Shown here piece by piece: positions 13,020 through 41,141 of a stretch of DNA of 64,000 bases. Origin of the DNA: a virus. The notes below the pieces were generated by a model. The model saw only the letters and a program-made list of their open reading frames with translations, had not been told where the DNA came from and ran no database searches. The stretch spans positions 1-64,000 of the IMG/VR virus record IMGVR_UViG_3300046665_000589; one strand, given 5' to 3'. The position numbers and the translations under genes are program-made. Every line of letters begins with the position of its first letter. Positions within the stretch are counted from its first letter, which is position 1.

Positions 13020-13063
13020 ATTCTAGGGGTATTTGAACGTGCCGTCTAGCAATACTTGTGCCA
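13020..13063 (-). promoter_or_regulatory. lysis promoter: TGGCACAAGTATTGCT box abutting TAGACG-17-TAGAAT
   Basis: Direct reading of minus strand. Confidence 0.65.
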
Positions 13064-13080
13064 GCCGTCAACTTGTTGCG

Positions 13081-13458
13081 TCAAGGTCGTTCGTCGTCCT
13101 GCACCTCGGCGTCGAGGATCTCGAGCGCGCGGCCGGCTTCCAGCAAGCCGCCATCCTCCAGCGTCTGCACGTTGGTGCGTACCTCCGGGTCGTCTAGGTC
13201 GACATAGGAGGCGGCCGCCAAGTCGGCCTGGGCCACGCGCAGGTCGGCTGCCTGCTGGCGCACCGTCATGCCGGCGCCCGGGTTGTCCAGCGCGGCCAGC
13301 TCCAGCGCCACCCGCTCGGCGCGGGTAAAACGCTTGCGGAAGGCCAGCACCGTGATGTGGCGCGGCAGGGCCAGCACCACCTCCGGGCGCGCCGCCAGTT
13401 CTGCCTCCTCCTCGAGCGTCAGTTCGCGCACCTCGCCGTTTTCAATTACTGTTGCCAT
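13081..13458 (-). CDS. tail fibre-associated protein (possible assembly chaperone)
   Basis: Follows fibre gene; ITVLAFRKRFTRAER and YVDLDD patterns. Confidence 0.55.
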   Translation of the reverse strand: MATVIENGEVRELTLEEEAELAARPEVVLALPRHITVLAFRKRFTRAERVALELAALDNPGAGMTVRQQAADLRVAQADLAAASYVDLDDPEVRTNVQTLEDGGLLEAGRALEILDAEVQDDERP

Positions 13459-13467
13459 AGGTCTTCC

Positions 13468-15252
13468 TTATTTCTTGATGCCGTACAGGGTGATGGTGCC
13501 GCCGGCAAAGATGCCGCCGCCTCCCGGGTAAATGCGTATGCCCTCAATCGCTGTGTTGCCGAGGTACTGCCAGACCTTGGTGATATCGGCGTACTGGCCA
13601 CTGCCAGGCTGCGTCGATCCACGCAAGGCGACTGGGCGCTTACTCGTGCTTCCGGGCATCATGATCTCGACCGTAGCCGAGAGCAACTGGCCGCCCGGCA
13701 GCCCTTGCGGCGCCATCGAGATACCTGTCGAGGTTGTGCTCGAAGCGGTTGACGCCAGCGAGACGTAGTTTGAGCCGCTATCCACGCTCCCGCCGGCCAT
13801 CATCTGCAAAGTCGGTGAGCCAGACGTGCTTTGCGAAATACCCTGAATCTCCAGCACCAGCTTGGCGTAGGGCGAGGTGTCGATGCCGGAAAACCCGACA
13901 TACGCAGGGCTGCCGCTGATGACGGCAGTGCCGAGTGGGACCGTCGGGATGTAGGTATTGACGTTCCCTGAGTGCAAGAAGGTCTTGCCGCTGCTGTGAG
14001 TGATGTCGCCGCCGTAGGCGAACAGAAAGTTTTCGGTGGCGTTGTTATCGTTGCCGCCCATTGCGATAAAAGCACCGCCGCTCCAGGTAGTGTCCCCTGC
14101 CCGGTAGGCGCCCCACACGAGATGCTGGCGATAGCCGCCGCCGACCCGCGTGATCTGGTGCATGGCTGGCGCGAACCCTGCACCAGCCAGCACCAGCTCG
14201 GCAACTTCGAGGGGCGCGGTCGCCAAGCCGGTGACGGCGGCCACCTGCCCTGGTGGGCGGGTGATGAGCGAATTACCGGCAGCCATCGTGAGCGGCCCCG
14301 TCAGCGTACCGCCACCCAATGGCAGTTTGGTGCTGTCGGCCACAGTGATAGGGGTTAAGCCATCGAACGGCACGCCGTTGATGTTGACCGGAGCGGCGAG
14401 CTTGGTTGCCGTATCGGCCTTGCCCGTGAAGCTGGCAGCGTTGACCGGCAATGCTGCCCGGTCGTAAATGACCGACATTGACAACGCGTTCTTCACCGCA
14501 GGACCGTCGCTAGTAACCCCGCGCACCCGCAGGTAGATCGGGTTGCTGCTGGAGGCTAGGTGGGCGATGGGGATCGCGTATTTGCTGGAAGCCGCACTCC
14601 ACACCAATTCGCCAATGGCGAAGTGAAGCGGCGTATTTCCCACCGCTTCGACCACCTGGCTGGTGTTGTTCCAGATGTTGTTGTTGGGGTTGACCCCGAT
14701 CTGGAAACGCTTGACGATACCTCCTGCAGCGTTAGCGTCGGCATAGGTCGAACCCAGCGTTACTTCGATAAAGCCAGAGAAGGAGATGTTGCCCAGCTCC
14801 AGGTCCACGGCCTTCCCAGCAACAGCCGGGAAGAGCACGCTGAACGTGCGCTCGAAAGCGCACTGCATCGACAGACCAGCGGAGTTGACCGCCGCGCTGA
14901 CATCGGCACCGGTCAGCCCAAGGCTGGCACCTGTCAGCGTCACGTTGCCGCCTACCGCGGCTACGCCATTCACGGTCGTAACCGAGCCGGCACTGGCAGC
15001 CACTTCCCAGTTGGTGGTGTCCGCGCTTGGCACGACAGTGCCGGCGCCGGCCACCTTGCGGCGCCAAGTCGAGCCGCCACTGGTGGCCAGGTCGTCCACA
15101 GCATAGGTGGCACCGGAAATCCAGGCACCGGTCCAGTTCAGCCCCTTCGCGCCCGTATCGCCCTTCTCGCCCTTGGCAAGGTCGGCCAGCCTGGATAGAT
15201 AGTTCAGCTGGACGATGTAGTCGGTCTGGCCGTAGTAGAAACGGTCTGCCAT
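13468..15252 (-). CDS. tail fibre / receptor-binding protein
   Basis: GEKGDTG, W.GAW..G.TY..DD, VTTVNG, ADTATKL...INGVPFDG, LPLGGGTLTG fibre motifs; lower GC. Confidence 0.85.
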   Translation of the reverse strand: MADRFYYGQTDYIVQLNYLSRLADLAKGEKGDTGAKGLNWTGAWISGATYAVDDLATSGGSTWRRKVAGAGTVVPSADTTNWEVAASAGSVTTVNGVAAVGGNVTLTGASLGLTGADVSAAVNSAGLSMQCAFERTFSVLFPAVAGKAVDLELGNISFSGFIEVTLGSTYADANAAGGIVKRFQIGVNPNNNIWNNTSQVVEAVGNTPLHFAIGELVWSAASSKYAIPIAHLASSSNPIYLRVRGVTSDGPAVKNALSMSVIYDRAALPVNAASFTGKADTATKLAAPVNINGVPFDGLTPITVADSTKLPLGGGTLTGPLTMAAGNSLITRPPGQVAAVTGLATAPLEVAELVLAGAGFAPAMHQITRVGGGYRQHLVWGAYRAGDTTWSGGAFIAMGGNDNNATENFLFAYGGDITHSSGKTFLHSGNVNTYIPTVPLGTAVISGSPAYVGFSGIDTSPYAKLVLEIQGISQSTSGSPTLQMMAGGSVDSGSNYVSLASTASSTTSTGISMAPQGLPGGQLLSATVEIMMPGSTSKRPVALRGSTQPGSGQYADITKVWQYLGNTAIEGIRIYPGGGGIFAGGTITLYGIKK

Positions 15253-16596
15253 CTAGATGCTCTCGATTTCAAGTGTTGCCGCGGCAAGGTTAAAAGAAGG
15301 CAAGGTCATCGACGGAGTCGTGACCAGCTTGCCGTATAGCTGGTGATCCTGCTCGCGCGCGGTGTCGGCGTCGTTCGGGAACACGCTGACAAATACTGGG
15401 CGCGTGATGCCGTTGCCGCGCAGGATGCTGAACAGCTTGGCGCGGTCGACCGGCTCGAGTTTGGTCATGGGCAGCGCCAGCTTGACGCTGCGCGACCCCT
15501 GATCACTCATCAGGTCGCCGGCATCGTTGCGAAAGTTCTTGCTGGCGTCAAGCGGCTGGGCCGACGCGCCGTAATCGGCATTCTTGGCCGGCTCCCAGTA
15601 CGCGCCACAGACTAGCCGCGCGGCCTCGATGTAGCCACCCGGGTTGCCTGCATCGGTGATCTCAATACGCAGCGCGCGCACCGCGGCCGGTGCGGCGATC
15701 CAGGCACGTGCCAGGTTGCCTCCGCCATAGGCGTAAGCATTGGCGCCGAGCGGCGCGGTGCCCCAGCCCCACAGCCCGAACGGCGCGCCAGGGCAGGCGT
15801 ACACCCAGAGGGTGTCGAGATTGTACGACTGCCAACTGTCCATATAGCCGAGCGGACGGGTGGCGGGCGCGTTGGTCGTGTTCGGGTAATAGCTGTCAGG
15901 CACTAAGCCGGTTTGCAGTTGCGCACCGAACATCTCGTACGCGCCGCTGCTAAGGAACTGGATGTCGAAAAACCTGTAGGTCATGCCGGCAGGCATGTTG
16001 GCGCTGTTCGCGCTCAGCCGCCGCCAGGCGCCGTCCAGCGTCACCTGCTGCACCGTACCGTCGCAGCAGTCGAGTGTGATAGTCCGAGGCACCCCGTCAG
16101 GAGTACGCAGGAAGATCGAGGCGCAGTAGACGGTCCCAGGCGTACCGCTGCCTGTATCACCGAAGCGAACAGTCGACGAACCATTCGGAGTGCCGACAGT
16201 AAGGCGGCGCACCCCGGCTACTCCATCTGGCCCGGACGAACCAGCAACCACCCCGTTATCCGTAATATTGCCGCCAAAAATCTGGTAGACGCCGGAGCTC
16301 TCGCGCAACGAGCTGTACGAGATGTAGTTAGTGGCCGGGTCCTCGTTGGTGCCGCGCACCCGAATCGCTGCTTGCGCCGACAGGTTGCAGTATGGCAAAG
16401 CCACGCCCGCGATCATTTCGGCCGTCGGCCAGGACAGGTCCAGGGTTGCCGCAGGGATGCCTGCACTAGTTGAGCGCCACACCACCGACTTCAGGTCGCT
16501 CTTCAGGTTCGCCGCCACCAGCGCGCCGACGCTCGACGACGCGCTCAGAGTGGCGCGGTCGGCGGCATTGTCATAGATGACGCGCAGGTTGGGCAT
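15253..16596 (-). CDS. tail tip protein with inserted carbohydrate-binding-like domain
   Basis: Position in tail module; central lower-GC beta-rich segment ending FGAQLQTG. Confidence 0.65.
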   Translation of the reverse strand: MPNLRVIYDNAADRATLSASSSVGALVAANLKSDLKSVVWRSTSAGIPAATLDLSWPTAEMIAGVALPYCNLSAQAAIRVRGTNEDPATNYISYSSLRESSGVYQIFGGNITDNGVVAGSSGPDGVAGVRRLTVGTPNGSSTVRFGDTGSGTPGTVYCASIFLRTPDGVPRTITLDCCDGTVQQVTLDGAWRRLSANSANMPAGMTYRFFDIQFLSSGAYEMFGAQLQTGLVPDSYYPNTTNAPATRPLGYMDSWQSYNLDTLWVYACPGAPFGLWGWGTAPLGANAYAYGGGNLARAWIAAPAAVRALRIEITDAGNPGGYIEAARLVCGAYWEPAKNADYGASAQPLDASKNFRNDAGDLMSDQGSRSVKLALPMTKLEPVDRAKLFSILRGNGITRPVFVSVFPNDADTAREQDHQLYGKLVTTPSMTLPSFNLAAATLEIESI

Positions 16597-16646
16597 GGTC
16601 GCATTTGGCTAAGTTCCGGTAGGCAAGAGCATGGCACAGTTCTTGC

Positions 16647-18587
16647 CTACAGTCCAGCTTCAAGCTGCTGGACCCGCGCCCTCAACGCCGCCACCTCGGC
16701 CGACATCTCCTGCAACGCCTTGATCATCGGTGCAATCAGCTCCTCGTAGCGCAAGGCTTGGCGTGAGCTCAAATCGTCCTTGTCGGCCAGGACCCAGAAC
16801 GCGGCATCGCGCTCGCCCAGGGCTTCTTTGACTTCCTGTGCGATCAGCCCGTAGTGGCGACGTACTCCGGGTACCACCGTCTCGACCATCTCGTAACGTG
16901 GCGGCTCGTTCTCCAGCCGTGGGCCGGGGAGCTCGGCGCCGCGGGTGACGATGCGCTGCGCTTCCGTCAGGCGGTACGACACCGGGCGCAGCGCGTTGAT
17001 GAATTCCAGACCGAGGTCGGAGTCTTCGACCTCAGTCTTATAGCTCCGGTCCGACGTCACCACCACTGCCGATGAGCTGTAGATGCCGGACCAGGCGTTA
17101 CCGGACGTGCCGAGCGTGCCGCCGCCGGTCACATTGCCGCTGATGTAGGCATTGCCGTACGCCTGGAAGGCGTCGGCGGAGCTGACCGACTGGCACTGCA
17201 GCGCAGTGTAGCTGCTGTAGCTGCCGCCGTTGGCGAAAGCACCGACACCGCCGATAAGGTTGTCGGCCCAGACCACGCCACCACTGCTGACCTGGAACGT
17301 GGTACCGCCGCTACCGATGTAGATTTCGATACTGGACAGGGTGCCGGTACTGATCTTGCTGGCGCTCAGGTTAGAAATGTAGGCATCGCCGATCGCCGCG
17401 CTGGCGATGTAGGTGCCGACGTTGGCGGCCGTGATCTGGCCGTAGATGTTGTTGTCGAACGACGCGCCGAAAGTGGCGCCGTAGTCGATGCTCGACAGCT
17501 TGGCGCCCTCGGTTGAATTCAGGCCTGCCAGCGATGTCGGACGTCCGGACACCCAGGTCGCGTAATCCAACTTGAAGCTGGTGCCGCTGCCTAGGATCAG
17601 TGTGCCGTCCGGCTTACGCAACTCCAGGCCGTTGGAGTTGATCTTGCTGGCCGTGACCGTACCCGGCACGATCAGGCTGCCGTCGACCACCGTGCCCTGC
17701 GCCGCCCAGGCACTGCCGGTCCAGACCTTGACCATCACGAAGTTGGTGCCGTTCGAGATGGTGACAGTGTCGTTGGGCAGCGGCGTACTGCCGGGGCAGG
17801 CGGCGCTGGCGACGACGTCCGACCAGCTGCTGCCGGTCGCGTAGTAGTTGCCGGCGCCGCGGGTGCCGGGCACGCCGCTGCCGCCGCGGAATTTGGACCA
17901 CACGTAGTCGGCCGGGTTGGTGCTCTCGGTCGCGGTCGGCTTGTTGACGGCCAGCCCCAGGTACAGCGTGTTCTCGGTCGGCAGGTCGTACAGGCCGCTG
18001 CCGTCGGCATTGTCCGAATACTTGATCCAGGTGTACAGCGTGGCGCCGGTCGGGCCGGTCGGGCCGGGCAGACCGTCGGTACCCTTGATCAGCGACCAGC
18101 TGTAGTCGGCCGCCGTGGTCGACTCCACCGGCGTTGCCTTGTTGTAGGCCAGGCCGATGTAAGTCTTCCCGGTCGGATCGTCCGACAGCCCGGCGCCGGC
18201 CGCGCTGTCGGCGTACTTCACCCAAGTGTAGGTGGTGCTGCCATCACGGATCTTGGCCACGCTGTACGAGCTCGAGTAGACGATGCCGGCGTAGGTCAGG
18301 GTCACCGTCACCAGCGCCACGTCGGCGCTCATGTTGGCGGCCGTCAGGGTGCGCACGTTGGCGCCGCTGCCGGTCAGGGTGCCGCCGCTGATCGCCCAGC
18401 TGACCACCCCCGGCGCGCCGAGCTGGATCGCGGTCAGCGTCACGCTGGCCGGGGTCGGGCTGCTGCCGTCGAGCGCGGTGCGGATGACCGGGCTGCTGCC
18501 GGTCAGCAACAGGCCGCTGCCGTAGGCGCCGAAGCGCGGTTCGGCGCTGCGCAGCAGCAGGTCGAGGTCGTTGACGATCGTGCTCAT
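16647..18587 (-). CDS. tail fibre/spike with C-terminal S74-type intramolecular chaperone
   Basis: TSDRSYK, INALRPVSY, HYGLIAQEV, LRYEELIAPMIKALQE; collagen-like GPT repeats. Confidence 0.85.
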   Translation of the reverse strand: MSTIVNDLDLLLRSAEPRFGAYGSGLLLTGSSPVIRTALDGSSPTPASVTLTAIQLGAPGVVSWAISGGTLTGSGANVRTLTAANMSADVALVTVTLTYAGIVYSSSYSVAKIRDGSTTYTWVKYADSAAGAGLSDDPTGKTYIGLAYNKATPVESTTAADYSWSLIKGTDGLPGPTGPTGATLYTWIKYSDNADGSGLYDLPTENTLYLGLAVNKPTATESTNPADYVWSKFRGGSGVPGTRGAGNYYATGSSWSDVVASAACPGSTPLPNDTVTISNGTNFVMVKVWTGSAWAAQGTVVDGSLIVPGTVTASKINSNGLELRKPDGTLILGSGTSFKLDYATWVSGRPTSLAGLNSTEGAKLSSIDYGATFGASFDNNIYGQITAANVGTYIASAAIGDAYISNLSASKISTGTLSSIEIYIGSGGTTFQVSSGGVVWADNLIGGVGAFANGGSYSSYTALQCQSVSSADAFQAYGNAYISGNVTGGGTLGTSGNAWSGIYSSSAVVVTSDRSYKTEVEDSDLGLEFINALRPVSYRLTEAQRIVTRGAELPGPRLENEPPRYEMVETVVPGVRRHYGLIAQEVKEALGERDAAFWVLADKDDLSSRQALRYEELIAPMIKALQEMSAEVAALRARVQQLEAGL

Positions 18588-20050
18588 ACCAGCACCTGCA
18601 AGGTGGTGCGCGCGGTCTTCGAGTTGAGCGCGCGCGAGATGACCATGCCGGTCTGGCCGTTGGCCAGGCCGAAGCGGGAGTTCTGCAGCTGCACCGCGTC
18701 ACCAAGCTGCAGGGTCAGGCAGGGCGCCAGCCCCTCGAACTCGTAGACGGTGCGCTGCACCTTCCACAGCGCCAGCTGGCGCGCCGCCTCGGCGGCCGCG
18801 TCGGTGCGGCGCAGCAGCAGCGTGTCCTGCTGGACCGGGTCGGCGCTCAGCTTGTAGGTCGCCTGCACCGCGCTATCGACCGCGGTCTCGGTCGCCCATT
18901 CGGCGGCCAGACGCGCCTTGTGCTCGACCGGCAAGGCGGTCTGCAAGTCGTCCTGCACCGTCCAGTTCTTGCAAAAGCCCAGCTTGACCGCGGCCTTGAC
19001 GTCGGGCCGGTTGACGATCTTGATCGACTTTTCGGCGATCATGGCCGGCGTGATCGCGGTCGGCGTGCCGGGCGGCGGCAGCGCGACCTGCAGCAGGCGC
19101 AGCTGACCGGTGGCCGACGGCACCAGCTGCGCGCCGAGCGAGCCGGCCAGCTGCTGGCAGGCCGCCAGCACGTTGGTGCGGTCGCCGATGTACAGGCCGA
19201 CCGGCTGCGGGTGGGCGGCGTCGAACGCGGCGAAGTTGGCGCTGTCGATCTCGGCCAAGGCGAACCGCTCGGGCACCTTGCCATAGCTGGTCGCAAGGCG
19301 CTGGACCAGCGGCGCGACCGTGTTGGCGTAGCCGCCCGTCGTGTCGCCCTGGAAGCTGACGGTGATGGTGCCCGCCACGCCTTGGTTCAGGCGGAAGCGC
19401 CCGTTGCCCAGGTCCGTGAAGGCGACCGGCAGGCCGTTGTCGCGCACCTCGAAGATCCACTCGGTCGCGCCGTCGTGCACCTGGTACTCGAGCTGGGCCG
19501 GGTCGACCAGCAGCGGCGTGACGTTGGCCACCTCGCCCAGCCCGACCGGCACGATCTCGTCCTTGTTGGTGGTGGTGCCGCCCAGCTTGTGCTCGGTCAC
19601 CGGCGCGTTCAGGCGCTGCAGATTGTCGCGCAGCTTGATGTTGAGCGTCTCGCGGCTCTTGCTGTCGAGGTTGGCCGCGCGCCCGCTGAAGATCATGCGG
19701 AAGTCGGCGCGCGGCCAGCGCACGTCGCCGATCCAGGCCTTGACCGGGGTGTTGGTCCAGACGTAGCCGAGCCAGGCGTCGCGCGCGCCGCCGAAGTTGT
19801 GGAACTCGATGTCGCCCACCGATATCTGCGGGTCGCCCGTCAGCGACAGCGCCTCGCTGAACGTGATGCCCGAGCTGCACACCCCGACGTACGGGGTGTG
19901 GGCGGGCGCGTCGGCCGCGCCGGTGGTGTAGCCGACGGTGGCCAGGTACAGCGTGGTGGGCACGCCACCAACCAGTGGCGTAACCTCGATCAGCGTGGTA
20001 CGCCGGGCGGTCGGATCGTTCAGCCAAGCGAGGAAGTCGGCATCGGTCAT
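18584..20050 (-). CDS. tail tip / hub protein
   Basis: Directly after tape measure; VPVGLGEVANVTP; C-terminal LQLGDAV...RFGL. Confidence 0.7.
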   Translation of the reverse strand: MTDADFLAWLNDPTARRTTLIEVTPLVGGVPTTLYLATVGYTTGAADAPAHTPYVGVCSSGITFSEALSLTGDPQISVGDIEFHNFGGARDAWLGYVWTNTPVKAWIGDVRWPRADFRMIFSGRAANLDSKSRETLNIKLRDNLQRLNAPVTEHKLGGTTTNKDEIVPVGLGEVANVTPLLVDPAQLEYQVHDGATEWIFEVRDNGLPVAFTDLGNGRFRLNQGVAGTITVSFQGDTTGGYANTVAPLVQRLATSYGKVPERFALAEIDSANFAAFDAAHPQPVGLYIGDRTNVLAACQQLAGSLGAQLVPSATGQLRLLQVALPPPGTPTAITPAMIAEKSIKIVNRPDVKAAVKLGFCKNWTVQDDLQTALPVEHKARLAAEWATETAVDSAVQATYKLSADPVQQDTLLLRRTDAAAEAARQLALWKVQRTVYEFEGLAPCLTLQLGDAVQLQNSRFGLANGQTGMVISRALNSKTARTTLQVLV

Positions 20051-27033: not shown

Positions 27034-27099
27034 AGAAAAGCCTCCATTGGAGTTGCCATTATCCAATGGAGGCTAGTTGTAGGCAAGCAATTACTATGC

Positions 27100-27435
27100 C
27101 TACTTCTTGCGTTTCTCGCCCACGTACTCGAGGTAGGCGTTGTCGATCATGGTCACGTATCGCAGCAGACGGTCCCGTTCGTTCACTTTTGAGATTTTGA
27201 ACAGGTAGCAGTAGGCGAGGATCTCTGACACCGGGATCGCCAGCGGTCCACCCATGCTGACTGGCCTGCCACGCGCGATGGACTGGTACGCGCCGTAGTA
27301 ATAGGCCTGGCGGACATCGAGGACGGGGCGATCGCGCAAGGCTTGCGGATCGTCCCCGTCGCGCCTTAGCTGTTCAAGGAACTCGAGCTGACTACCCCAC
27401 TGCAGGTCCCAGCGTAGGTAGTCTCGGAGTTTTTT
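27100..27435 (-). CDS. tail assembly chaperone -1 frameshift extension (gpGT-like)
   Basis: -1 frame open from slippery A AAA AAC (27429-27435) to TAG at 27100. Confidence 0.8.
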   Translation of the reverse strand, partial: KKLRDYLRWDLQWGSQLEFLEQLRRDGDDPQALRDRPVLDVRQAYYYGAYQSIARGRPVSMGGPLAIPVSEILAYCYLFKISKVNERDRLLRYVTMIDNAYLEYVGEKRKK

Positions 27436-27974: not shown

Positions 27975-29192
27975 TTACGGCGTCACGGCCGCGCCCACCC
28001 GGTCGATGAACATCGTCGCGCGCAGGGCCGGCGTCGCGTTGGCGACGTCCTTGTACGCAGTGTACTCGAAGCTGGCCATCAGGTCCGAATTCTTCGAGCC
28101 GGCGTTGACGGTGGCCTTGGTCAACTGCACGCGCGGCAGGGTGATCACGTAGCCGTTGCCCAGCGAGTCCTTGGTGGCCAGGCCCAGCGAGGTGTACACG
28201 TCGTTCATGAACTTGGTGAACAGCGCGCCGTTGGCGAAGTACACCTCGAGCGAGCCCTTGACCACGAAGGTGCCGATGCCCGCGCCGACCAGGCCCAGCA
28301 CGCCCAGGCCGTCCTGCGCGCGCAGGCCCGAGTCGATCTCGATGCTCATCTTCTTGATCGTCACGCCAGCCAGCGGGGCGCCGTTTTCCCAGATGTTGCC
28401 CACGCCGGTCACGCCGTTGTGGATGTCGTAGGTCTGCGACGCCGCGGTGACGCCCGGCAGCTGCGAGGCGGCGTTGAGCACCATGTCCTTGCCGAGGAAC
28501 GTGAAGGTCCCATCGGTCATCGACTTAGAGGCAAACTCGGTCGTGAACTTGCTCGGGTACTGGCCGCGGTAGGTGAAATACTGGTTGACCTCCGCAACCT
28601 GGCGCTCGATCGTGAACGGGGTCAGGGTCACGCCGTTCTGCAGGCGCGAGGTCGAGATCGTGCAGCCAGCGATCGGACCGGAAGCGGTGGCCGGGGTGCT
28701 CGGGTCGAGCGTGATCGCGGTCGTGGTCGGCGCAGTGGTGCCGTGCACGCGGAAGAACTTGCCGTCGTTGGCGTCGCCCGGCGCGTTCAGCTTGAACCAC
28801 TGACCCTTCTGCAGGGTCGTGAAGGCGCTCGAGCCGATCGGCGCGGCGCCAGCGGTGATGGTGGTGGCCGTCATCGTGCCGGCAAAGGCGGTGCCCACGC
28901 CGTTGGTGCCGTAGACGCTCCAGGCGCTGCGCAGCAGCGAAGCGAACAGACGGTCGTACTCGGCGTACTGCATGTGGATCTTGATGTCACCACCCGCCTG
29001 GGCGCCGGTCGTGGTCGACGAGGTCAGCTCGGCCGTGGCGTTCATCTCCTTGTCGTTTTCCTTGGTCAGGTCGAAGTTCAGCGTCTCCCCAGTCATGCGC
29101 AGGTAGGCGCCATTGCCAGCGACCGGCACTTGGCCGAAGTTGGTTTCCGGGATGTAGGCAAGCTGTACGCGGTCGGCTGATGGCAGCGGCAT
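27975..29192 (-). CDS. major tail tube protein
   Basis: LAYIPETNFG, LRMTGETL, VKGSLEVYF, YVITLPRV; position upstream of chaperone. Confidence 0.85.
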   Translation of the reverse strand: MPLPSADRVQLAYIPETNFGQVPVAGNGAYLRMTGETLNFDLTKENDKEMNATAELTSSTTTGAQAGGDIKIHMQYAEYDRLFASLLRSAWSVYGTNGVGTAFAGTMTATTITAGAAPIGSSAFTTLQKGQWFKLNAPGDANDGKFFRVHGTTAPTTTAITLDPSTPATASGPIAGCTISTSRLQNGVTLTPFTIERQVAEVNQYFTYRGQYPSKFTTEFASKSMTDGTFTFLGKDMVLNAASQLPGVTAASQTYDIHNGVTGVGNIWENGAPLAGVTIKKMSIEIDSGLRAQDGLGVLGLVGAGIGTFVVKGSLEVYFANGALFTKFMNDVYTSLGLATKDSLGNGYVITLPRVQLTKATVNAGSKNSDLMASFEYTAYKDVANATPALRATMFIDRVGAAVTP

Positions 29193-29273
29193 GATAGTGC
29201 TCCAAGGTAAAGTTTCCCGAAGTCTACCTTGGTTGTTCTGTCAAGTGTTGCAAAGTTTGCTGCCTGTGTGCAA

Positions 29274-29693
29274 TTATCGTGCCAGCCTGTCATACCAGAA
29301 ATCTAAAAGGGTCGGTACGTACCACCAACCCTTGACCTTGCGGGCGCGGATCGCCTGTGCCGCGTGCAGCTTGACGCTGCCGCAGGTCTGCAGCTCGAAG
29401 TACGGCACCACGAAGTCGAGCAGCCGGCGGGCGGCGTCGGTGCCGCTGTCCTTCTTGACCACTGCGTACAGGCACAGCTGCCCGACCTGGCGCACCAGCG
29501 GACGCTCGGCCAGGTCGAGCTGGCCTCCGCCGGGCAGGAAGTCGACCTCAACCAGCAGGTAAGGATCCTGCTGGGTGACCTGGTCAACCACGCTGCGGTT
29601 GTCGATCTCGACCACCAGCGGGTAGTCGGTGAAGTCGGCCTGGATTTGCGCCACCACGGCGCGAAGGTCTCGGCTGGCCTGTGCCTGGCTCAT
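29274..29693 (-). CDS. putative tail terminator
   Basis: Synteny just upstream of tail tube, 139 aa. Confidence 0.6.
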   Translation of the reverse strand: MSQAQASRDLRAVVAQIQADFTDYPLVVEIDNRSVVDQVTQQDPYLLVEVDFLPGGGQLDLAERPLVRQVGQLCLYAVVKKDSGTDAARRLLDFVVPYFELQTCGSVKLHAAQAIRARKVKGWWYVPTLLDFWYDRLAR

Positions 29694-31021: not shown

Positions 31022-31516
31022 TCAGCTGCCGGTGATCGGGCTGGTACCCGGGGTGGCGGCCAGCGCCGCCAGCCGCTCGGCCGGCGCGGGCGGGGTGGCG
31101 TCCGGGTTGAGCCTGGCGTAGGCCGCGCGCAGGCGGGTGCGCAGGATGCTGAGCGTGGTCGGGACGTCGATGCGCAGCTGGGCATAGGCGTCGGGAACTC
31201 GCTCCGCCTCGCTCTTGCCGGCGGCGCTGATGCGCGCCGGCGCGAACATCGCCACCGCGCCCAGACACTGCTTGGCGATGTGATAGGCGGCGTAGGCCTG
31301 CACCAGGTTGACGAAGCGCTCCTGGTCGTCGGTCTTGGTCGCGAGCGGCGCGGTGGCAGCGAAGTCGGCCAACATCTGCGCGTGCAGCGCGTCGATGTCG
31401 CCGGTCAGCTGCGTGGTGTAGAGCGGCAGCAGCAGTACGTCGTCGTGCAGCTCTTTCTCGGACACGCCGAGCACGGCGCGCACTTCGGCGGTGGAGGTGA
31501 TGTCGGTGAATGCCAT
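31022..31516 (-). CDS. putative head-tail adaptor
   Basis: TSTAEVRAVLGV N-terminus, helical, synteny. Confidence 0.6.
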   Translation of the reverse strand: MAFTDITSTAEVRAVLGVSEKELHDDVLLLPLYTTQLTGDIDALHAQMLADFAATAPLATKTDDQERFVNLVQAYAAYHIAKQCLGAVAMFAPARISAAGKSEAERVPDAYAQLRIDVPTTLSILRTRLRAAYARLNPDATPPAPAERLAALAATPGTSPITGS

Positions 31517-31561
31517 GAGGGCTCCTTTTGGGAAACATTATGGCACGGAAAATGCTTGCGC

Positions 31562-32872: not shown

Positions 32873-32898
32873 AAAACGGCCCCTTTCGGGGCCGTTTT
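32873..32898. terminator. bidirectional terminator between capsid and endonuclease genes
   Basis: AAAACGGCCCC-TTTC-GGGGCCGTTTT. Confidence 0.85.
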
Positions 32899-32911
32899 AA
32901 GTTTGGTCAGA

Positions 32912-34144: not shown

Positions 34145-34165
34145 TGTTGTTCTCCTGTTGAGGGG

Positions 34166-34654: not shown

Positions 34655-34667
34655 GCTGGCTCCTTGA

Positions 34668-35237
34668 TTAACGGTTGGCGGACGGCGCGGTTTTGAGGGC
34701 GAACTCGAAGCCGAACGGCACCGCGGCCTTGTTCGTGTCCTTGTCGTCGGCGTCGCTGGCGACCGACTGGCGGCCGACCGGGAACTTGGCCTTGAACTCG
34801 GTTTCGACGCGGGCGTGCTCGGCGATCACGGCGGCGGCGTCCATGCCATCGACCGCGGCCTTGGTGCCGCCCAGCGGGATCAGCATCTTGGCGGTGGCGT
34901 CCTTGGCGATGGCCAGCAGGCCGTCGTGGTGCTGGGCCACCTTCTGCAGGTCGCCCACCTTGGCGGTGGCGGCGGCGGCATCGGCCTTGGCAGCGGTCAG
35001 CGCGGTGTTGGCGCTGGCCAGCTCGGCCTGGGCCGTGGTCAGCTGACCCTTGACGGTCGCCAGCTCGGCCTTGATGGTGGTCAGCTCGGCGGCTGCCTGG
35101 TTCTGGGAAGCGGCGGCGTCGCGCGCGGCGATCTCCTCGGCGCTCATCGCGGTGCCGTCTTCGTGCAGGCCGATGTCGGCCATCGACTTGCCGGCGCGCA
35201 GCAGGTTCAGTTGATCTTGAGTCAGAGTAATGGCCAT
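34668..35237 (-). CDS. nested in-frame scaffolding protein
   Basis: Internal ATG with RBS GAAAGG and promoter elements inside a low-GC linker. Confidence 0.7.
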   Translation of the reverse strand: MAITLTQDQLNLLRAGKSMADIGLHEDGTAMSAEEIAARDAAASQNQAAAELTTIKAELATVKGQLTTAQAELASANTALTAAKADAAAATAKVGDLQKVAQHHDGLLAIAKDATAKMLIPLGGTKAAVDGMDAAAVIAEHARVETEFKAKFPVGRQSVASDADDKDTNKAAVPFGFEFALKTAPSANR

Positions 35238-36095
35238 AGCTTTACCTTTCGAATGGGAAGGAGTATTGCTGGAGTGTTTCTGCTTGTCAAGCAATTTTAG
35301 TGCCAGGTCGAAACTTTGCACTTTGTCCACAAGGCCGGCCTTGAGCGCCATCTGGCCGAGGAAGGTCTGGCCCTTGGTCACTTCGGCCAGCTGGTCGGCC
35401 GACAGGTTGGTACGGCCGGCCGCGACCTGCTTCTTGAACAGCTTGTGCACTTCGGCAAGCTGGGCCTGGGCGCGCTCCTTGGCGCCTTCGGTCAGCGGCT
35501 CGATGCTGTTGACCTCGGCCTTGTATTCGCCGGCGCGCAATACGGTGCGGGTCACGCCGTTCTGCTCGGCCTGCTTGCTGTTCTCGGCATGCACGCGCAG
35601 CACGCCGATCGAGCCGACCACCGCGGTCGGGCCGGCGCTGATCGCGCCGCGAATGGCGCTGGCCATCCAGTAGCCGGCCGAGGCCATCAGCTCGGTGGTG
35701 TGCACGGCCGACGGCTTCAGGGCCGACAGCTGCGACAGCAGCGCGCTCATGTCGACCAGGCCGGCAACATCGCCGCCCGGCGTGTTGATGTGGTACAACA
35801 TGGCTTTGGTGTCGGCGTGGGTCGCGGCCTCGATCGCGGCGGCCGCGATGTTGTCGTAGCCGAGCACGCCGAACAGGCGCATGAAGCCGGCATCACCCTG
35901 CACCACCGGACCGTTGATCTCGAGCACGGCGCTCGAGCCCTCGTGGCGCCAGAGCTTGGGCAGCTTGGCGATGGCCTCGTCCAGCCAGCCGGCGGTCATG
36001 CCGGGCTTGGCCAGCAGGTCGTCGACCTTGGCCTGGGCCTTGACGACCAGCTCGTACGACTCGTCCGAGCCGGCCCAGAAAAGTGGGACGCTCAT
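34668..36095 (-). CDS. S49-family head maturation protease fused to scaffold
   Basis: INTPGG, MASAGYWMAS, VGSIGV, RAGEYK; C-terminal Ala-rich coiled coil. Confidence 0.9.
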   Translation of the reverse strand: MSVPLFWAGSDESYELVVKAQAKVDDLLAKPGMTAGWLDEAIAKLPKLWRHEGSSAVLEINGPVVQGDAGFMRLFGVLGYDNIAAAAIEAATHADTKAMLYHINTPGGDVAGLVDMSALLSQLSALKPSAVHTTELMASAGYWMASAIRGAISAGPTAVVGSIGVLRVHAENSKQAEQNGVTRTVLRAGEYKAEVNSIEPLTEGAKERAQAQLAEVHKLFKKQVAAGRTNLSADQLAEVTKGQTFLGQMALKAGLVDKVQSFDLALKLLDKQKHSSNTPSHSKGKAMAITLTQDQLNLLRAGKSMADIGLHEDGTAMSAEEIAARDAAASQNQAAAELTTIKAELATVKGQLTTAQAELASANTALTAAKADAAAATAKVGDLQKVAQHHDGLLAIAKDATAKMLIPLGGTKAAVDGMDAAAVIAEHARVETEFKAKFPVGRQSVASDADDKDTNKAAVPFGFEFALKTAPSANR

Positions 36096-37633
36096 TTTTT
36101 CGCGGGTCCTTTCGGTTGTTGCGGCGTCTTCTTCATCGCCGAGGTCGGCGAGGCCGGGTTGCCGGGGTTGTTGGGGTCCTGTTCGGCGGCCGGGGCCGGG
36201 GTCTTGAACATGGTGCCGCTGAGCGGCTTGAAGGTCGGCGGCGGCAGCTGGTAGGTCAGGCGCAGGCAGGCCTCCTCGTCGCTCATCATGCCGATCGACA
36301 GCAGGTTGGTGATGCGCTCGTACTTCATGGCGCGGTAGGCCTCGAGCTCGCCTGCGGGCTTGAGCTCGATGTCGTCGAATTCGAACTCGACCGTCACGTC
36401 CATGCCCAGCAGGCGCACCGCCAGGGTCAAGGCCTTGCTGTAGAGTTCCTGCAGCTTCAGGCGGATCATGCCGTCGGCGTTCTTCAGGAACATCAGGGTC
36501 TCGGTCGAGGCCACGGTCTGCGACTTCGCGCCCATGCCCAGCACCGACGGCGGGGTCTTGGTGGCGGTGGCGATCTTGCCGTCGTAGATGCCCTTGACGG
36601 TCTCGAAGGTGTCCGGGGTGTCGCCGTTGTCGCCCTCGACGTACTTCAGGTGGAAGAAGTCGAAGTGCACCAGCGCCTCGTCCACGCCCAGGTTGCTGAT
36701 GGTGTCGTTGATCTGCGTGAGCAGCGTGTTCAGGTAGGCGGTGATCTTCTCGTCGTCGCCGATGTACTCGGCCGGGATGCGCTTGAGCAGCTTCTCCTCG
36801 TCGATCTCAACGTCGTAGCGCTTGTAGACGTGGCGCTCGCAGAGCTTACGCAAGGTCGACAGGAAGTTGGTCGAGGCCAGCACCGGCTGGATCGCCGCCT
36901 CCATCGGGCTTTGCGGGTAGACGTCGTACAGGCTGGGGTCGAGCGCGACCCAGAAGAAGGTCGCGATGTCCAGGTCGATCTCGTCGCCACCCACCTTCTG
37001 CACCGGTTTGACGCCCTTGCCGTCCTGGTAAAAGATGATCGGGCCGGTTGGCACCGGCACCCACTGCAGCGGCAGGCGCTGCTTGTCGAGCACCAGTTCC
37101 AGGCCCATCGCGCCCTGCTGCTGGATCTCCTTGGCCAAGGCCTCGGAGGTCGAGCGCAGGCTGCCGACCTGGGAAAAGCCGTTGATGTAGTCCGGCATCG
37201 TGTTCATCGTGCGCAGCAGCTGCAGCGCCAGGCGGGTGGCGTCGACGTTGAAGTTGCCGTCCGGGTCGCGCGCGATCGCGATGTACTTTTCCGGGATGCC
37301 TACCCGGTTGTTGGCCGCGACCGAGCCGGCCAGCTCGGGCGAGATGCGCGACAGGTTGCGCACCAGGGTCGGGGTGTCCGCGGCGGTGCGGTAAGTCGCG
37401 GTCAGGTCGACGTTGGCAACGTCGAAGGCCGGCTTCTGGATCTTGGCGGTCGAGGCCACCGTGCTGGTGCGGAAACCCGGGAACGCGGCTCCGCCCGGCT
37501 TGGGCGGCTTGGGCGGCGGTGGGGACGGCAGCGCGGTTGCCGCGCTCATGCGCGAAGCGTCCGTGTTCACCGGGCTGTCAGCGTCGGTGAACCGGACCCC
37601 GCGGCGCGAGAAGATGGTCGGCAATTTCCACAT
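36092..37633 (-). CDS. portal protein
   Basis: ~510 aa between terminase and protease (alternative GTG start 37639). Confidence 0.8.
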   Translation of the reverse strand: MWKLPTIFSRRGVRFTDADSPVNTDASRMSAATALPSPPPPKPPKPGGAAFPGFRTSTVASTAKIQKPAFDVANVDLTATYRTAADTPTLVRNLSRISPELAGSVAANNRVGIPEKYIAIARDPDGNFNVDATRLALQLLRTMNTMPDYINGFSQVGSLRSTSEALAKEIQQQGAMGLELVLDKQRLPLQWVPVPTGPIIFYQDGKGVKPVQKVGGDEIDLDIATFFWVALDPSLYDVYPQSPMEAAIQPVLASTNFLSTLRKLCERHVYKRYDVEIDEEKLLKRIPAEYIGDDEKITAYLNTLLTQINDTISNLGVDEALVHFDFFHLKYVEGDNGDTPDTFETVKGIYDGKIATATKTPPSVLGMGAKSQTVASTETLMFLKNADGMIRLKLQELYSKALTLAVRLLGMDVTVEFEFDDIELKPAGELEAYRAMKYERITNLLSIGMMSDEEACLRLTYQLPPPTFKPLSGTMFKTPAPAAEQDPNNPGNPASPTSAMKKTPQQPKGPAKK

Positions 37634-37683
37634 GGCCACGATTTTGGCACGGAACTTGCTTTCTGTCAGCTTTTTTGATGCGC

Positions 37684-37710
37684 AAAAGAAAAGGCCCGCT
37701 TGCGCGGGCC
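37684..37710 (-). terminator. intrinsic terminator after terminase
   Basis: GGCCCGC-GCAA-GCGGGCC followed by TTTTCTTTT. Confidence 0.8.
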
Positions 37711-37768
37711 AAAAGCTTACGTGGAGACGGGCTTACTCTACCGCAAGCCGTGGCATTGTTCAATATCC

Positions 37769-39532
37769 TTAGGAGAGAACTCGGCCGATGCGCTGCTGCA
37801 TGCGCGCGGCCAGCGCCTGGGTGGGGGACTGCTTATCGACGACTTTCAGCGCGACTGCCATCGGGAAGGTGCCAAAGCTCATGTTATGCGAGGCTACCGG
37901 CGCCAGCTCGCAGGCCACGTGCAGGTAGCCCAAGGCGTGCATGTAGTGGTCCTGGCCCTCGTTGGACTTGACCCAGGTCCAGACCAGGTCCATCAGCGAA
38001 TTCATGATCTGCTTGCGTTTCATGTCCAGGCAGTGCTCGACGAACAGGTCGTCCTCGGCGGTGCCGTCGGCCTGCCACAGGATCATGCCGGCCTTGATCT
38101 TGAACATCACCTCGTCGAAGTTGACGTCGCGGTGGATCTTGGCCTGGTTGATCGGCAGCTTGCCCTCGGCCGGCTCGGCGCCGACCATCACCAGTTCGTA
38201 GGTGGCCAGCTTCTTGTTGCTGTGGTAGACGCCGCCGTACAGGTTCTTGTCGGTCTTTTGCAGCTGGTGCACCAGGTAGGTCTCGGGCTGGCTGTCGATG
38301 ACCGTCATTAAGACCCGAAACTGCTTCTTCAGCTCGTTCTTGCGGGTCGGCAGCTTGGCCAGCAGCACGCGCTCCTTGTGCACCACCAACAAGCGCCCAA
38401 GCTCGTCCTTGCGGCCGACCGCCACCGTGCACATCTGGCCGACGTCGATGCCCATGTTGTGCAGGCTGTTGGAGGCCAGCACGCCGTCGGTGAATTTGCA
38501 GGCGGTCAGGTCGCTGCGAGTGAGCTGGCTCTCGGACTCGTTGGCGGTCTCGCCCAGCGCCTGGTTGACGAACTCGGCCCAGGTCTTGTACTTGGTGATT
38601 TCCTGCACCAGCGAGGGCACGGTGACCACGTTGGGCACGTCGAACGGGGTGACGTAGTAGCCGATCGCCTCGAAGTTGTCGTTCGGGTTCTCGCAGATCC
38701 AGGCGCGGTGCTCCGGCGCCAGGCTGGGCTCCTCGTCGCAGTGCGGGCAGTGCAGGCGCGCGTGCTGCCAGTCGATGGTCGGCAGGTTGTACTTGGTGAT
38801 GTCGCGCAGGCGCCCGCTGTAGCCGGGGATCTTGACGTCGGTGTGAAAGCTCGGCACGAAGGTGTGGCTGCAATGGTGGCAGATCACCGCGCGGCGGTAA
38901 CGCATCGCGCTCTTCATGTCCAGCGCGATGCCGTCGTCGTCGATGGTCGGGGTGCCGAACTTGCGGGTCAGCTTGTAGCGCGAGTGCTTGATGCGCGACT
39001 GGTACTGGCCCAAGGCGTCCGGATCTGAGCGGTCGACCTCGTCGTGGATCAGCATGTCGGCCGGCACCGAGATGGCCGAGGTCGTGCCCGAGCAGCCGCG
39101 GGTGTACAAGAGGCTGGTGCCGATGCCCTTGATCTCGCTGTTGTCGAGGTCGCGGTCGACCACCTCGCGCAAGTCGGGCGACTCGTCGATAATCGGGGTC
39201 AGGCGGGTCTTGGAGAAGTTGGCCGAGTCGGCCGCGAACGGCATCGTCAGGATCACCGAGAAGTACGGCATCACGCGGCAGATCGCCAGCGCATAGCGCG
39301 CCATCGCCTCGGACATGCCGATCTGGGCGCACTTCTGGACGTACACCACGCGGCTGGTGTCGGACAGAATGTCCTTCTGGAATTCGTGGTCGACGAAGGA
39401 GAAGCGGTTGCCCTTGAGGTAGGTCTTGTCCTCGAGATAGCGCACGACGTCGCCCAGGTCGTAGCTGTTGAACAGCGCCGTTTCCAGGCGCGTCAGGTGG
39501 GCCCGGATTTCGGGATCGTCGACCAGGTTCAT
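37769..39532 (-). CDS. terL: terminase large subunit (lambda gpA-like)
   Basis: KCAQIGMSE Walker A variant, LIHDEVD Walker B, GTPT, CHHC/CPHC Zn motif, MGIDVG nuclease, DHY. Confidence 0.9.
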   Translation of the reverse strand: MNLVDDPEIRAHLTRLETALFNSYDLGDVVRYLEDKTYLKGNRFSFVDHEFQKDILSDTSRVVYVQKCAQIGMSEAMARYALAICRVMPYFSVILTMPFAADSANFSKTRLTPIIDESPDLREVVDRDLDNSEIKGIGTSLLYTRGCSGTTSAISVPADMLIHDEVDRSDPDALGQYQSRIKHSRYKLTRKFGTPTIDDDGIALDMKSAMRYRRAVICHHCSHTFVPSFHTDVKIPGYSGRLRDITKYNLPTIDWQHARLHCPHCDEEPSLAPEHRAWICENPNDNFEAIGYYVTPFDVPNVVTVPSLVQEITKYKTWAEFVNQALGETANESESQLTRSDLTACKFTDGVLASNSLHNMGIDVGQMCTVAVGRKDELGRLLVVHKERVLLAKLPTRKNELKKQFRVLMTVIDSQPETYLVHQLQKTDKNLYGGVYHSNKKLATYELVMVGAEPAEGKLPINQAKIHRDVNFDEVMFKIKAGMILWQADGTAEDDLFVEHCLDMKRKQIMNSLMDLVWTWVKSNEGQDHYMHALGYLHVACELAPVASHNMSFGTFPMAVALKVVDKQSPTQALAARMQQRIGRVLS

Positions 39533-39702
39533 GGTTTGCGCGAGTTACGGAGCTCACACACGATGGCGCCGGTCAAATAGCTGACAGACAGACCAAGTAA
39601 CCGATCGTTTTGTACGTCAAGGAGCATTAGTAGTATGAGCAGGGCAACCAGTGGCGTCAGGATCAGTGCCAGTTCGCGGATAGTGTCGAGGATGATGTTC
39701 AT
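39529..39702 (-). CDS. small membrane protein (57 aa)
   Basis: Read by eye; ATGA overlaps at both ends; two hydrophobic segments. Confidence 0.6.
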   Translation of the reverse strand: MNIILDTIRELALILTPLVALLILLMLLDVQNDRLLGLSVSYLTGAIVCELRNSRKP

Positions 39703-40127
39703 TTCGGCGTGCCGTCCGCGTTCAGGTAGTCGCTGTAGAGGTCGAAGAACCGGCGCTGCTGCGGCTCGGGCAGATCCTGGAGGGTCTTCATGAAGGCGGC
39801 CTCGTAGCGCTTGAGGCGCTCGGCGTCATACACCACGCCCATTAGCTTGGTCAGCTCCTTGAGCATGGCGCCGACCGAGTTGAACACCTGGGCGCGCTGG
39901 TTGGCCGGCACGTCGTCGTCGTCCTGGATCTTGGCCAGCAGGGCCTTGCCGGCGCGGTACTGCGCGCCCAGCTCGTCGCCCATGTTCAGGCTGCGCGGGT
40001 CCAGCTGCAGCTTCTTGTCGATCTCGTTGCGCAGGCGCAGCAGGTCGTCGTCGCTCAGGTCCTTGAGCAGGTCAACCGCGGGCGCCTTGTCGGGCTTGGG
40101 GGCCAGGCTGTGGTTTTTCAGGGTCAT
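39699..40127 (-). CDS. putative terminase small subunit
   Basis: Helical 142 aa protein upstream of terL; assignment by position only. Confidence 0.5.
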   Translation of the reverse strand: MTLKNHSLAPKPDKAPAVDLLKDLSDDDLLRLRNEIDKKLQLDPRSLNMGDELGAQYRAGKALLAKIQDDDDVPANQRAQVFNSVGAMLKELTKLMGVVYDAERLKRYEAAFMKTLQDLPEPQQRRFFDLYSDYLNADGTPK

Positions 40128-40462
40128 GGCTTGGCGTTCCGGTAGCGGTAGATGGTGCGTTCGCTGCAGTGGGCCTGGCGCGCGGCCTCGGTCACGCTCA
40201 GGCGAGTGTCGTCGGTGGCGCGGGTGCGTGCGGCTACTTCGCGGCGCAGCGCTTCACGCGCCTCGAGCAGTTCCATTTCTTCTGGCCGTGACCGTTTGCC
40301 CTCGCGGGACGGCGGCGGCTGGCGCTGCACGTCCATTTTCTTGAGCAGGCGGCAGATGTGGCCCTCGGATACGCCCAGTTTGCGTGCGACGTCGCGGTTG
40401 GTCAGCTCGCGGCGGACGATGGCGGGGATGAGCGGCTTGAGCCGGTCGCGTAGGGTTTCCAT
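40124..40462 (-). CDS. double HTH DNA-binding protein
   Basis: TNRDVARKLGVSEGHICRLLK and SVTEAARQAHCSERTIYRYR. Confidence 0.75.
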   Translation of the reverse strand: METLRDRLKPLIPAIVRRELTNRDVARKLGVSEGHICRLLKKMDVQRQPPPSREGKRSRPEEMELLEAREALRREVAARTRATDDTRLSVTEAARQAHCSERTIYRYRNAKP

Positions 40463-41141
40463 GCAATAAGTATGCCAGCTTTGTCGGGATTTGCCAATTT
40501 TGTGCAAAAGTTGCGCAAAATTTTCAAAAATTTTTGAAAATCGGGTGGTTTTGGCTGTTTTGTTGCAGAAAAGCAACAAAAAGTTTGAAAAATTGCTGGA
40601 AATGGCGGAGGGACCTGGTAGGCCAGGCGCCGGCAACAGGCCAAAAGCTCCTATACGTCACCCAAGGCACGATCGGCACCGCCCGCGTGCGTTCCGTCGT
40701 CCGGGTTCGCGCGCCCCGCCACGGGCCTAAAAACGGCCTTGCTGGGCGTGGCACACTTCTTGCTTTAACCGGCCGGGCCATAGGCTAGGCCTATCAACTT
40801 GACAGTGGCCATAGCCTGGCACAGTTCATGCTTAAGCGCCGCTGACCAGTACAGTTACCAGTACAGTTACCAATACAGCGCCGGTACAGTGGACCAGTAC
40901 AGCGGCACTGTACGGGTGCGCCAGCCGACCTCGCCAGCCGACCCGTGCGGCCGCACGATAGGGAAAAGCTATCACCCCGATTAATAAAATAAATTGGTAA
41001 AAGTAAGTTATTCCCGGCATACTAAGGGCTCAGTAGCGGTGCGGCTGGTCCGGCGCACCGTGGGCGCTAGCTTTTGCCCCTGTAGTTTCCCATAACCGTT
41101 GTCCGGCGCACTGTGCGCCATCTATCCAAGGAGCCCTTACC
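40463..41141. promoter_or_regulatory. divergent control region; candidate packaging (cos/pac) region
   Basis: Non-coding, A/T tracts, 22-bp palindrome 40520-40541, TTGGCA-17-CATACT (-), TTGGTA-18-CATACT (+) with AT-rich upstream element. Confidence 0.6.
40846..40902 (+). repeat. five CCAGTACAG-type direct repeats, 11-13 bp period
   Basis: ccagtacagtta ccagtacagtta ccaatacagcg ccggtacagtgga ccagtacagcg. Confidence 0.85.

Follow-up and report, generated by a model that had tools for sequence, protein, structure and literature searches.

Boxes with the σ54 promoter consensus overlie σ70-type late promoters in a metagenomic phage family and may act as operators

How late genes are timed in large virulent phages that have neither a sigma factor nor an RNA polymerase of their own is often not understood, and the locus described here raises the question of what short boxes resembling the -24/-12 element of σ54 (RpoN) promoters, TGGCAC-N5-TTGC, might be doing on promoters of the σ70 type. 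The window, i.e. the whole stretch of DNA that was analysed, comprises bases 1-64000 of the 93,507-bp IMG/VR virus record IMGVR_UViG_3300046665_000589 (64.6% G+C). Structural and lysis genes form a minus-strand block that begins at about 40,460 and ends at 11,415, with the gene order two-helix-turn-helix (two-HTH) protein, 142-amino-acid protein, large terminase, portal, protease/scaffold, major head protein, tail tube, chaperones, a 2,339-amino-acid tape measure, fibres and endolysin. Replication and accessory genes are found on the plus strand from 41,142 to the record end, continuing through bases 1-9,144. As far as can be judged from the sequence, an operator-like role of the boxes on σ70 promoters, as had been inferred in a first-pass annotation, fits this anatomy best, and we put the probability at roughly 45% that the boxes are high-affinity docking sites at which host σ54 holoenzyme competes with σ70 polymerase, while forward copies, i.e. 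those pointing at the gene, may also fire.

Searched loosely, as TGGCA-N7-TGC, the motif occurs 12 times in the window as compared to 4.4 expected occurrences, a number that is reached by none of 100 shuffles. The strict form, TGGCAC-N5-TTGC, is present six times (0.22 expected; 0 of 100 dinucleotide shuffles reach six), eight times in the whole 93,507-bp record (0.39 expected) and 5, 5, 2 and 5 times in four complete relatives of 87-93 kb that were fetched whole for comparison (about 0.3-0.4 expected), the enrichment being about 20-30 fold. All ten boxes reported by the first-pass annotation were found as 16-mers, each at its coordinates and on its strand, and the GG-N10-GC spacing of the RpoN -24/-12 consensus that it had described is present across the boxes of the record. 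Ten is the correct number within the window, whereas the whole record carries 12 boxes (eight perfect and four near-perfect TGGCAC-N5-TTGC elements with GG-N10-GC spacing), the two additional ones (record positions 78548 and 78581) being located beyond the window, in another divergent gap. Eleven of the 12 are located in gaps or at gene starts and the remaining one precedes an internal scaffold start; other one-mismatch matches have G+C-rich spacers, lie mostly inside genes and are taken for chance occurrences. In the genome under study TGGCA is followed after N6 by TTGC in 8 of 82 cases outside the interiors of called genes, as compared to 2 of 118 cases within them, a rough tally, as the crude gene caller, which is based on the G+C content at third codon positions (GC3), extends open reading frames (ORFs) over some promoters. 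Two outcomes which the first-pass annotation had named as speaking against its proposal, i.e. equal frequency of the motif in coding DNA and lack of conservation in relatives, did not occur: the strict boxes are almost entirely non-coding, and boxes are kept at syntenic places. The individual boxes and the elements next to them are as follows:

13048-13063, minus strand: lysis-cassette box, forward; its last T starts the -35 element of TAGACG-17-TAGAAT (13048-13020).
16632-16647, plus strand: tail-fibre box, reversed, in the gap before gene 15253-16596; it enters a TG-C-CATGCT extended -10 element (16628-16633, minus strand).
27086-27101, minus strand: tape-measure box, forward (AGGCAT...TTGCT); it adjoins TTGCCT-17-GATAAT (27086-27058).
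29269-29284, minus strand: tail-tube box, forward, consensus, ahead of gene 27975-29192; no well-spaced σ70 promoter adjoins it.
31541-31556, plus strand: box of gene 31022-31516, reversed, after a terminator; it fills the spacer of a TG-C-CATAAT promoter (-10 element at 31537-31542).
35290-35305, minus strand: scaffold box, forward, inside the protease-scaffold ORF; it adjoins TTGACA-17-AATACT (35290-35262), before an internal ATG near 35215.
37645-37660, plus strand: portal box, reversed, in the spacer of a TG-extended CTGACA-17-CAAAAT (37669-37641).
40462-40477, minus strand: box of the two-HTH gene, forward; it is also the TGG-CATACT extended -10 element of TTGGCA-17-CATACT (40497-40469), which is followed by 6 nucleotides (nt) and the ATG.
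40749-40764, plus strand: first divergent-region box, consensus, towards the plus-strand genes; no σ70 promoter was recognised alongside.
40817-40832, plus strand: second divergent-region box, 68 bp after the first, with TTGACA before it and CCAGTACAG repeats after it.
Record position 78548: box of the leftward gene 78041-78514, reversed, in the 17-nt spacer of TTTACA-17-CAGACT.

Every well-conserved box overlaps a σ70-type promoter that faces the gene, and the overlap takes defined forms. In the forward copies at 13048, 27086 and 35290 the -35 element begins with the final T of the box, which spans about -50 to -35, whereas in the reversed copies the CA of GTGCCA provides positions -12/-11 of a TG-preceded CAnnnT hexamer and the box spans about -26 to -11. 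A σ70 pattern scan that was blind to the boxes found seven σ70-like promoters between 26,900 and 41,200, where 1.7 were expected; of the six that belong to the late strand four overlap boxes. A fifth box-overlapping match is TAGACG-17-TAGAAT (13048-13020, minus strand). The presence of a -24/-12 site within a -35/-10 footprint was thus established in five cases by an independent scan, and further overlaps were read directly in the genome and its relatives, e.g. the -10 hexamers at the reversed boxes 31541 (CATAAT) and 16632 (CATGCT), which were recognised in the sequence by eye. The scan recovered all three promoters whose -35 element had been said to abut a minus-strand box (lysis, tape measure, scaffold), and antisense boxes do fill the spacer and run into a minus-strand TG-C-CAnnnT -10 element, as had also been claimed, at 37645 (scan) and at 31541 and 16632 (reading). 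The more general statement that the boxes mark late promoters in both orientations is supported, except that 40749 and 40817 adjoin no recognisable late promoter.

Two good σ70-type promoters of the late strand, TTGACA-17-TACACT (27896-27868) and TTGTCA-16-CATACT with a TGG (31959-31932), the latter using TGGCATACT, have no box, and a box is therefore not obligatory in late promoters. Two other ways of reading the forward boxes were tried and rejected: taken as reversed-type promoters for the opposite strand most of them have no usable -10 element there, and taken as carriers of a -10 hexamer in N5 they have spacers that vary among relatives.

The relatives are metagenomic contigs only, a portal search having returned 13 loci with 93% to 44% identity (in the following G000 is the genome under study and G001-G005 are relatives). 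Boxes recur syntenically in relatives with a portal identity of only 45-93%, and even in a relative with 51% G+C the scaffold and portal promoters still have reversed boxes. A matrix of 42 curated sites of the family (T38 G42 G42 C40 A42 C32/T7, a purine in 39, an A/T-rich centre, T39 T42 G42 C42, T29) corresponds to the σ54 consensus at all ten core positions, usual tolerated substitutions included; its invariant GG and GC partly reflect the picking of sites with no more than one mismatch, and retention of the GC, i.e. of the C at -12, in 42 of 42 sites is likewise partly due to the construction of the search.

The most telling case of conservation, as read from the aligned promoters, is a change of orientation. 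At the scaffold promoter a forward box adjoins TTGACA in G000, L001, L003, L004 and L006, and in L007-L012 the box is reversed and located in the spacer, TTGACA-aaGCAAAATCCGTGCCC-AATAAT, at the same place after a conserved protease motif. The lysis promoter of G000, G001, G003 and G005 keeps TGGCAC, TTGCT, T[AG]GAC and CTA[GA]AAT at fixed distances, and N5 and the remainder vary. Upstream of the portal gene, which truly starts with a conserved ATG at 37633 rather than with the GTG at 37639, this ATG following the -10 element at a distance of 7 nt, a reversed box is present in every relative having a box there, lying either in the spacer and entering CAAAAT, CACAAT or CATACT, or over the -35 element, where TTGCCA precedes GATACT or CATACT by 17 nt. 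The 18-mer TGGCATACTTATTGCATG at the two-HTH gene (TGG-CATACT-TATTGC-ATG) is near-invariant in ten relatives, spacer included, and the promoter at 78548 (TTTACA, box in the 17-nt spacer, CAGACT or CAGAAT) is kept in all four relatives. One divergent-region box is retained in G001, G003 and G005, followed by an ATAG...CTAT palindrome. As overlap of the box with the core σ70 promoter is kept while its position and orientation vary, the boxes look like operators that would work by exclusion rather than like activator sites or directional promoters. In all relatives the ATG of the portal and two-HTH genes is located 6-7 nt after TG-C/G-CAnnnT hexamers, and their mRNAs are predicted to be leaderless or nearly so; in the window these are the minus-strand stretches 37631-37646 and 40460-40474. 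Many of the promoters overlain by boxes are of the extended -10 type. Extended -10 elements (TGn) and leaderless mRNAs are ordinary elements; what is new here is the fusion with the -24 half of a σ54 box.

Might the boxes simply be σ54 promoters that are fired with the help of a host enhancer-binding protein, as in phage YuA, with other-strand copies giving rise to antisense or rightward transcripts and the σ70 elements being independent tandem promoters? In favour of this, the boxes match the -24/-12 consensus perfectly, start codons follow four forward boxes at a distance of 60-90 nt, YuA provides a precedent, and 40749 and 40817 face plus-strand genes. The boxes at 13048, 27086, 29269 and 35290 point at a gene and would give a translatable mRNA from a start about 12 nt after the GC, and the one at 29269, having no well-spaced σ70 neighbour, is the best candidate for a stand-alone σ54 promoter. 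However, at least 7 of the 12 boxes are apparently unable to yield a downstream mRNA via σ54, i.e. those at 16632, 31541, 37645 and 78548, which are reversed, the box at 40462, from which a σ54 start would lie within the box's own ORF, past the ATG, and, less clearly, those at 40749 and 40817, which have no nearby gene; the copy at 78581 likewise allows no clear assignment. Moreover, the most conserved boxes are reversed and stand in a near-constant register with a minus-strand -10 element, which would be pointless for an antisense promoter, and the flip of orientation at one and the same promoter also argues against a directional element. Thus, we regard plain σ54 promoters as an unlikely explanation of the boxes.

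Neither has a phage-encoded activator been found. No enhancer-binding protein (PF00158) exceeds the Pfam cut-off in the six complete genomes G000-G005, with one weak sub-threshold match in G005 (15 bits), and no shared enhancer-like repeat was seen upstream of the forward boxes on reading the sequences. Searches of this phage record with Sigma54_DBD, Sigma54_CBD and Sigma70_r2 gave no match, and a search for a T7-type RNA polymerase (RNA_pol) gave none either, which is no evidence of absence as the control genomes did not give any match. Activation of the boxes by a host enhancer-binding protein is conceivable.

On a -24/-12 site σ54 holoenzyme forms a stable closed complex that persists until it is remodelled by an enhancer-binding ATPase. 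A box that is located over the -35 element (forward copies), over spacer and -10 element (reversed copies) or over -10 element and start (40462) would, once occupied, exclude σ70 polymerase. The main effect would be competition, or occlusion, which could serve as a brake or timer on late transcription, and the four forward boxes of the lysis, scaffold, tail-tube and tape-measure genes could additionally fire as σ54 promoters, given a host activator. What we infer here is that σ54 is the binder, that binding means repression, and in which way the brake would be released. Host σ54 is favoured as the binder because a near-universal consensus is matched across diverged phages, because occupancy of such sites is expected in hosts with rpoN and because there is a precedent for repression in E. 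coli (PMC4551910). In this bacterium both in vivo and in vitro work has shown σ54 holoenzyme to occlude σ70 promoters at overlapping sites, all with a C at -12 (Schaefer et al. 2015, PMC4551910; Zafar et al. 2014 cited there), and competition for binding was observed in vitro at argT, chaC, mdfA and patA (PMC4551910). As in classes I and II of the E. coli cases (Schaefer et al. 2015) the -24/-12 site lies inside the σ70 footprint and the GC at -12 is retained, but the E. coli cases are scattered over the chromosome, whereas here, where the arrangement is known from sequence, most late operons are concerned, in fixed registers, in both orientations and family-wide.

Several observations weigh against occlusion by σ54. 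First, the boxes of the tape-measure, tail-tube and fibre genes are confined to the closest relatives and the σ70 elements there persist: the tape-measure σ70 promoter is present in all relatives and its box only in the closest (L001/L002) and, in another register, in G004; the tail-tube box is kept by none but L001-L003, the closest relatives with a portal identity of 93%, is degenerate in G001 and absent in G003-G005; and at the fibre promoter of G003 and G004 the extended -10 element (TGGTATTTT) is kept and the box is not. Second, the 20-mer AGCAATTTCTGTGCCACAAT at promoters of the 31541 class is identical down to 45% portal identity (17 stretches in 16 IMG/VR contigs) and is invariant in its N5 spacer, too, which σ54 alone would not require. 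Third, G004 and L004 have two reversed boxes only 19 bp apart, which is too close for two holoenzymes, but not for a small protein. Fourth, the GTG-C-CA of the reversed boxes is the expected look of an extended -10 element with C at -13/-12, as in TGGCATACT. Fifth, no host, and hence no host rpoN, came out of the searches described below. Finally, the lifting of repression has no explanation in the occlusion model. One might speculate that the boxes constitute a copy-number-sensitive repressor system, in which scarce σ54 silences a dozen sites on the incoming genome and is titrated after replication, so that replication itself would time the late genes and a phage late activator would be dispensable, but we consider this rather improbable.

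The fourth of these points leads to the question whether a separate factor is needed at all. The motif could be a by-product of the σ70/σS-type promoter style of this family, i.e. of TG-extended CAnnnT -10 elements and TTGCCA-like -35 elements, which was duplicated and inherited. GTGCCAnAAT may indeed be taken for RTGn followed by C-13 and a CAnAAT hexamer, several relatives use TTGCCA for their -35 element, and TGGCATACT is the extended -10 element of a box-free promoter. Nevertheless, such an origin leaves unaccounted for the GCAA/TTGC at a fixed distance of 5 nt, with its different frequency outside and inside genes of G000 as given above, as well as the forward boxes upstream of -35 elements with variable N5 and the boxes at 40749 and 29269, which have no adjacent -10 element. 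We therefore hold it to be very improbable that the boxes have no binder of their own.

The double boxes 19 bp apart, in turn, would suit a small DNA-binding protein, and the late block itself encodes one:

40124-40462, minus strand: gene of P0001, 112 amino acids with two HTH motifs; first gene of the late block.

P0001 is, on the basis of its sequence and predicted fold, a candidate box binder or small-terminase-like DNA binder. Its HTH units give an HTH_23 match and a match resembling σ70 region 4 and correspond to helices 22-42 and 90-109 of the model, which is confident (predicted local distance difference test score, pLDDT, 87). The recognition helices of the two units (xCRxL and CSERTIYR) are retained by ten orthologues, the remainder diverging to about 40% identity, and the homologues found in IMG/VR all belong to this phage family. 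No AraC-type match was obtained among Pfam families, the best Foldseek E-value in a fold search against the PDB was 0.46, with generic HTH folds only and no match to an RpoN domain, and no PDB sequence matched better than E 0.076; Tc3 and AraC-type domains are among the weak fold matches.

If the boxes were operators of P0001, a monomer of the protein might span each box, its two HTH units contacting TGGCA and TTGC, which are one helical turn apart. Boxes in a spacer, in a -10 element or at its own start would then serve repression, and promoters with a weak -35 element, e.g. the lysis promoter, would be activated by P0001 bound over part of this element, resulting in a late-to-lysis switch with autoregulation, and the likeness to the σ54 consensus would be coincidence or mimicry. 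Apart from the two HTH motifs in a confident model with conserved recognition helices and the double boxes, this possibility is in agreement with the most invariant box covering the -10 element and start codon of the P0001 gene itself, with the forward box adjoining the poor -35 element of the lysis promoter, and with the distribution of P0001, which coincides with that of the boxes, the distant relative PMBT3 having neither. On the other hand, it is improbable a priori that an unrelated protein matches the σ54 consensus at ten positions plus the tolerated substitutions, and in an rpoN host consensus sites are expected to be bound by σ54 holoenzyme regardless. P0001 also occupies the position expected for a small terminase or pac-binding protein, beside a conserved A+T-rich repeat tract that is possibly its real target, and its comparison with MarA/AraC and other defined bipartite regulators gave no match that was significant, be it by fold or by family. 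We regard an operator function for P0001 as the main rival of occlusion by σ54, albeit a less likely one.

MarA, SoxS and Rob are monomeric bipartite regulators that recognise asymmetric sites in both orientations, and marboxes, like the boxes described here, vary in orientation and position relative to the -35 and -10 elements. To our knowledge, MarA-type sites do not lie inside the promoter spacer. Similar to MarA, SoxS and Rob, or to the paired HTH units of the Tc3 type, P0001 is small and has two HTH units able to contact two major grooves one turn apart, but unlike these systems it has no significant sequence or fold membership and the box is the σ54 consensus.

The A+T-rich tract with TTTTGAAAA/TTTTGCAA-type repeats extends from 40478 to 40600, directly upstream of the two-HTH gene, and all relatives have a tract of this kind. 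It may represent a pac site or a region for terminase binding, an UP/IHF region or the real target of P0001.

Returning to occlusion by host σ54, phage YuA is the system to compare with. The YuA promoters are said to have been described as rpoN-dependent by Ceyssens and colleagues in 2008. In the YuA record (NC_010116) three -24/-12 promoters with high promoter-trap activity are annotated, one before the scaffold gene and one just before the tape-measure region, and according to a later study of its transcriptome YuA is dependent on σ70 and σ54 (PMC10914365). The phage described here and YuA have in common a G+C content of about 64%, -24/-12 elements in the morphogenesis and lysis region, also before the scaffold gene and the tape-measure region, and the lack of an annotated phage activator. 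They are, however, unrelated, as portal and terminase searches return no YuA; the first 50 kb of YuA contain no strict TGGCAC-N5-TTGC, its record shows no annotated reversed or in-spacer boxes, and the repeat of its own second, phage-specific promoter class, which has a conserved spacer, differs from the reversed-box promoters found here.

The YuA promoter-trap fragment 38392-38570, which is labelled as '-24/-12 consensus', also holds a textbook σ70 promoter, TTGACC-17-TACAAT, just before the scaffold gene, and σ54 and σ70 elements may thus be interlocked in YuA as well.

In the literature searched, use of σ54 by a phage is documented only for YuA, and repression of σ70 promoters by σ54 for a handful of E. 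coli genes. The link between rpoN and resistance to phage that is known from Salmonella (PMC8744999) works indirectly, through metabolism or RpoS, and was set aside as irrelevant. What would be new, as far as the genomes compared here indicate, is the combination of two known ideas, i.e. YuA-type use of σ54 by a phage and occlusion by σ54, together with its conservation. If σ54 is the binder, the virus would be using the silent closed complex of a host polymerase for regulation, and if the binder is the two-HTH protein, this would be a new small regulator with a site that copies a host promoter.

As to relatives and the host, none of the cultured phages matched in a near-DNA search, portal and terminase protein searches returned only distant siphoviruses of Vibrio, Pseudomonas (PMBT3) and Acinetobacter with 24-31% identity, a portal protein scan of 185,579 species genomes gave no match, and no tRNA genes were found in the window. 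PMBT3, a cultured distant relative for which the whole genome is available, has no real boxes and encodes an HU-like protein at the place expected for P0001. Since it lacks both boxes and P0001, PMBT3 cannot separate σ54 from P0001 as the binder.

Some of the box-bearing loci show further features. Inside the protease ORF 34668-36095 an internal in-frame start at about 35215 has its own promoter and ribosome-binding site, which suggests, from the arrangement of these signals, a scaffold gene nested in the protease ORF like λ C/Nu3. Distant relatives apparently have separate protease and scaffold genes, divided at the point of the internal start.

At the tail-tube gene the distant relatives have a promoter of a different kind (G005 at about 72,560-72,620, and at the same place in G003 and G004), with TT[GT]ACA, a 19-bp spacer and TAGACT. 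This spacer contains a perfect palindrome, GGCAATAATTGCC, in G003 and G005, from which G004 differs by one base. The GGCAATAATTGCC promoter has a MerR-like long-spacer architecture, and the half-sites of the palindrome are similar to the box halves, with a distance between them that is 2 bp shorter.

The minus-strand gene 78041-78514, which is preceded by the box at 78548, encodes 157 amino acids that match nothing in Pfam or PHROG, is transcribed divergently to an RdgC-like gene and is one of the rare leftward genes in the plus-strand block. Finally, the divergent-region box is flanked by lineage-specific repeats, i.e. five copies of CCAGTACAG at 40836-40905 in the window and GGTCCAACCAAT repeats in G003-G005 (G003 12225-12265), and ATAGGC..GCCTAT palindromes are found in G001 (14385-14530) as well as between the boxes at 40749 and 40817. 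From their arrangement these divergent-region repeats look like operators or iterons of some early regulator.

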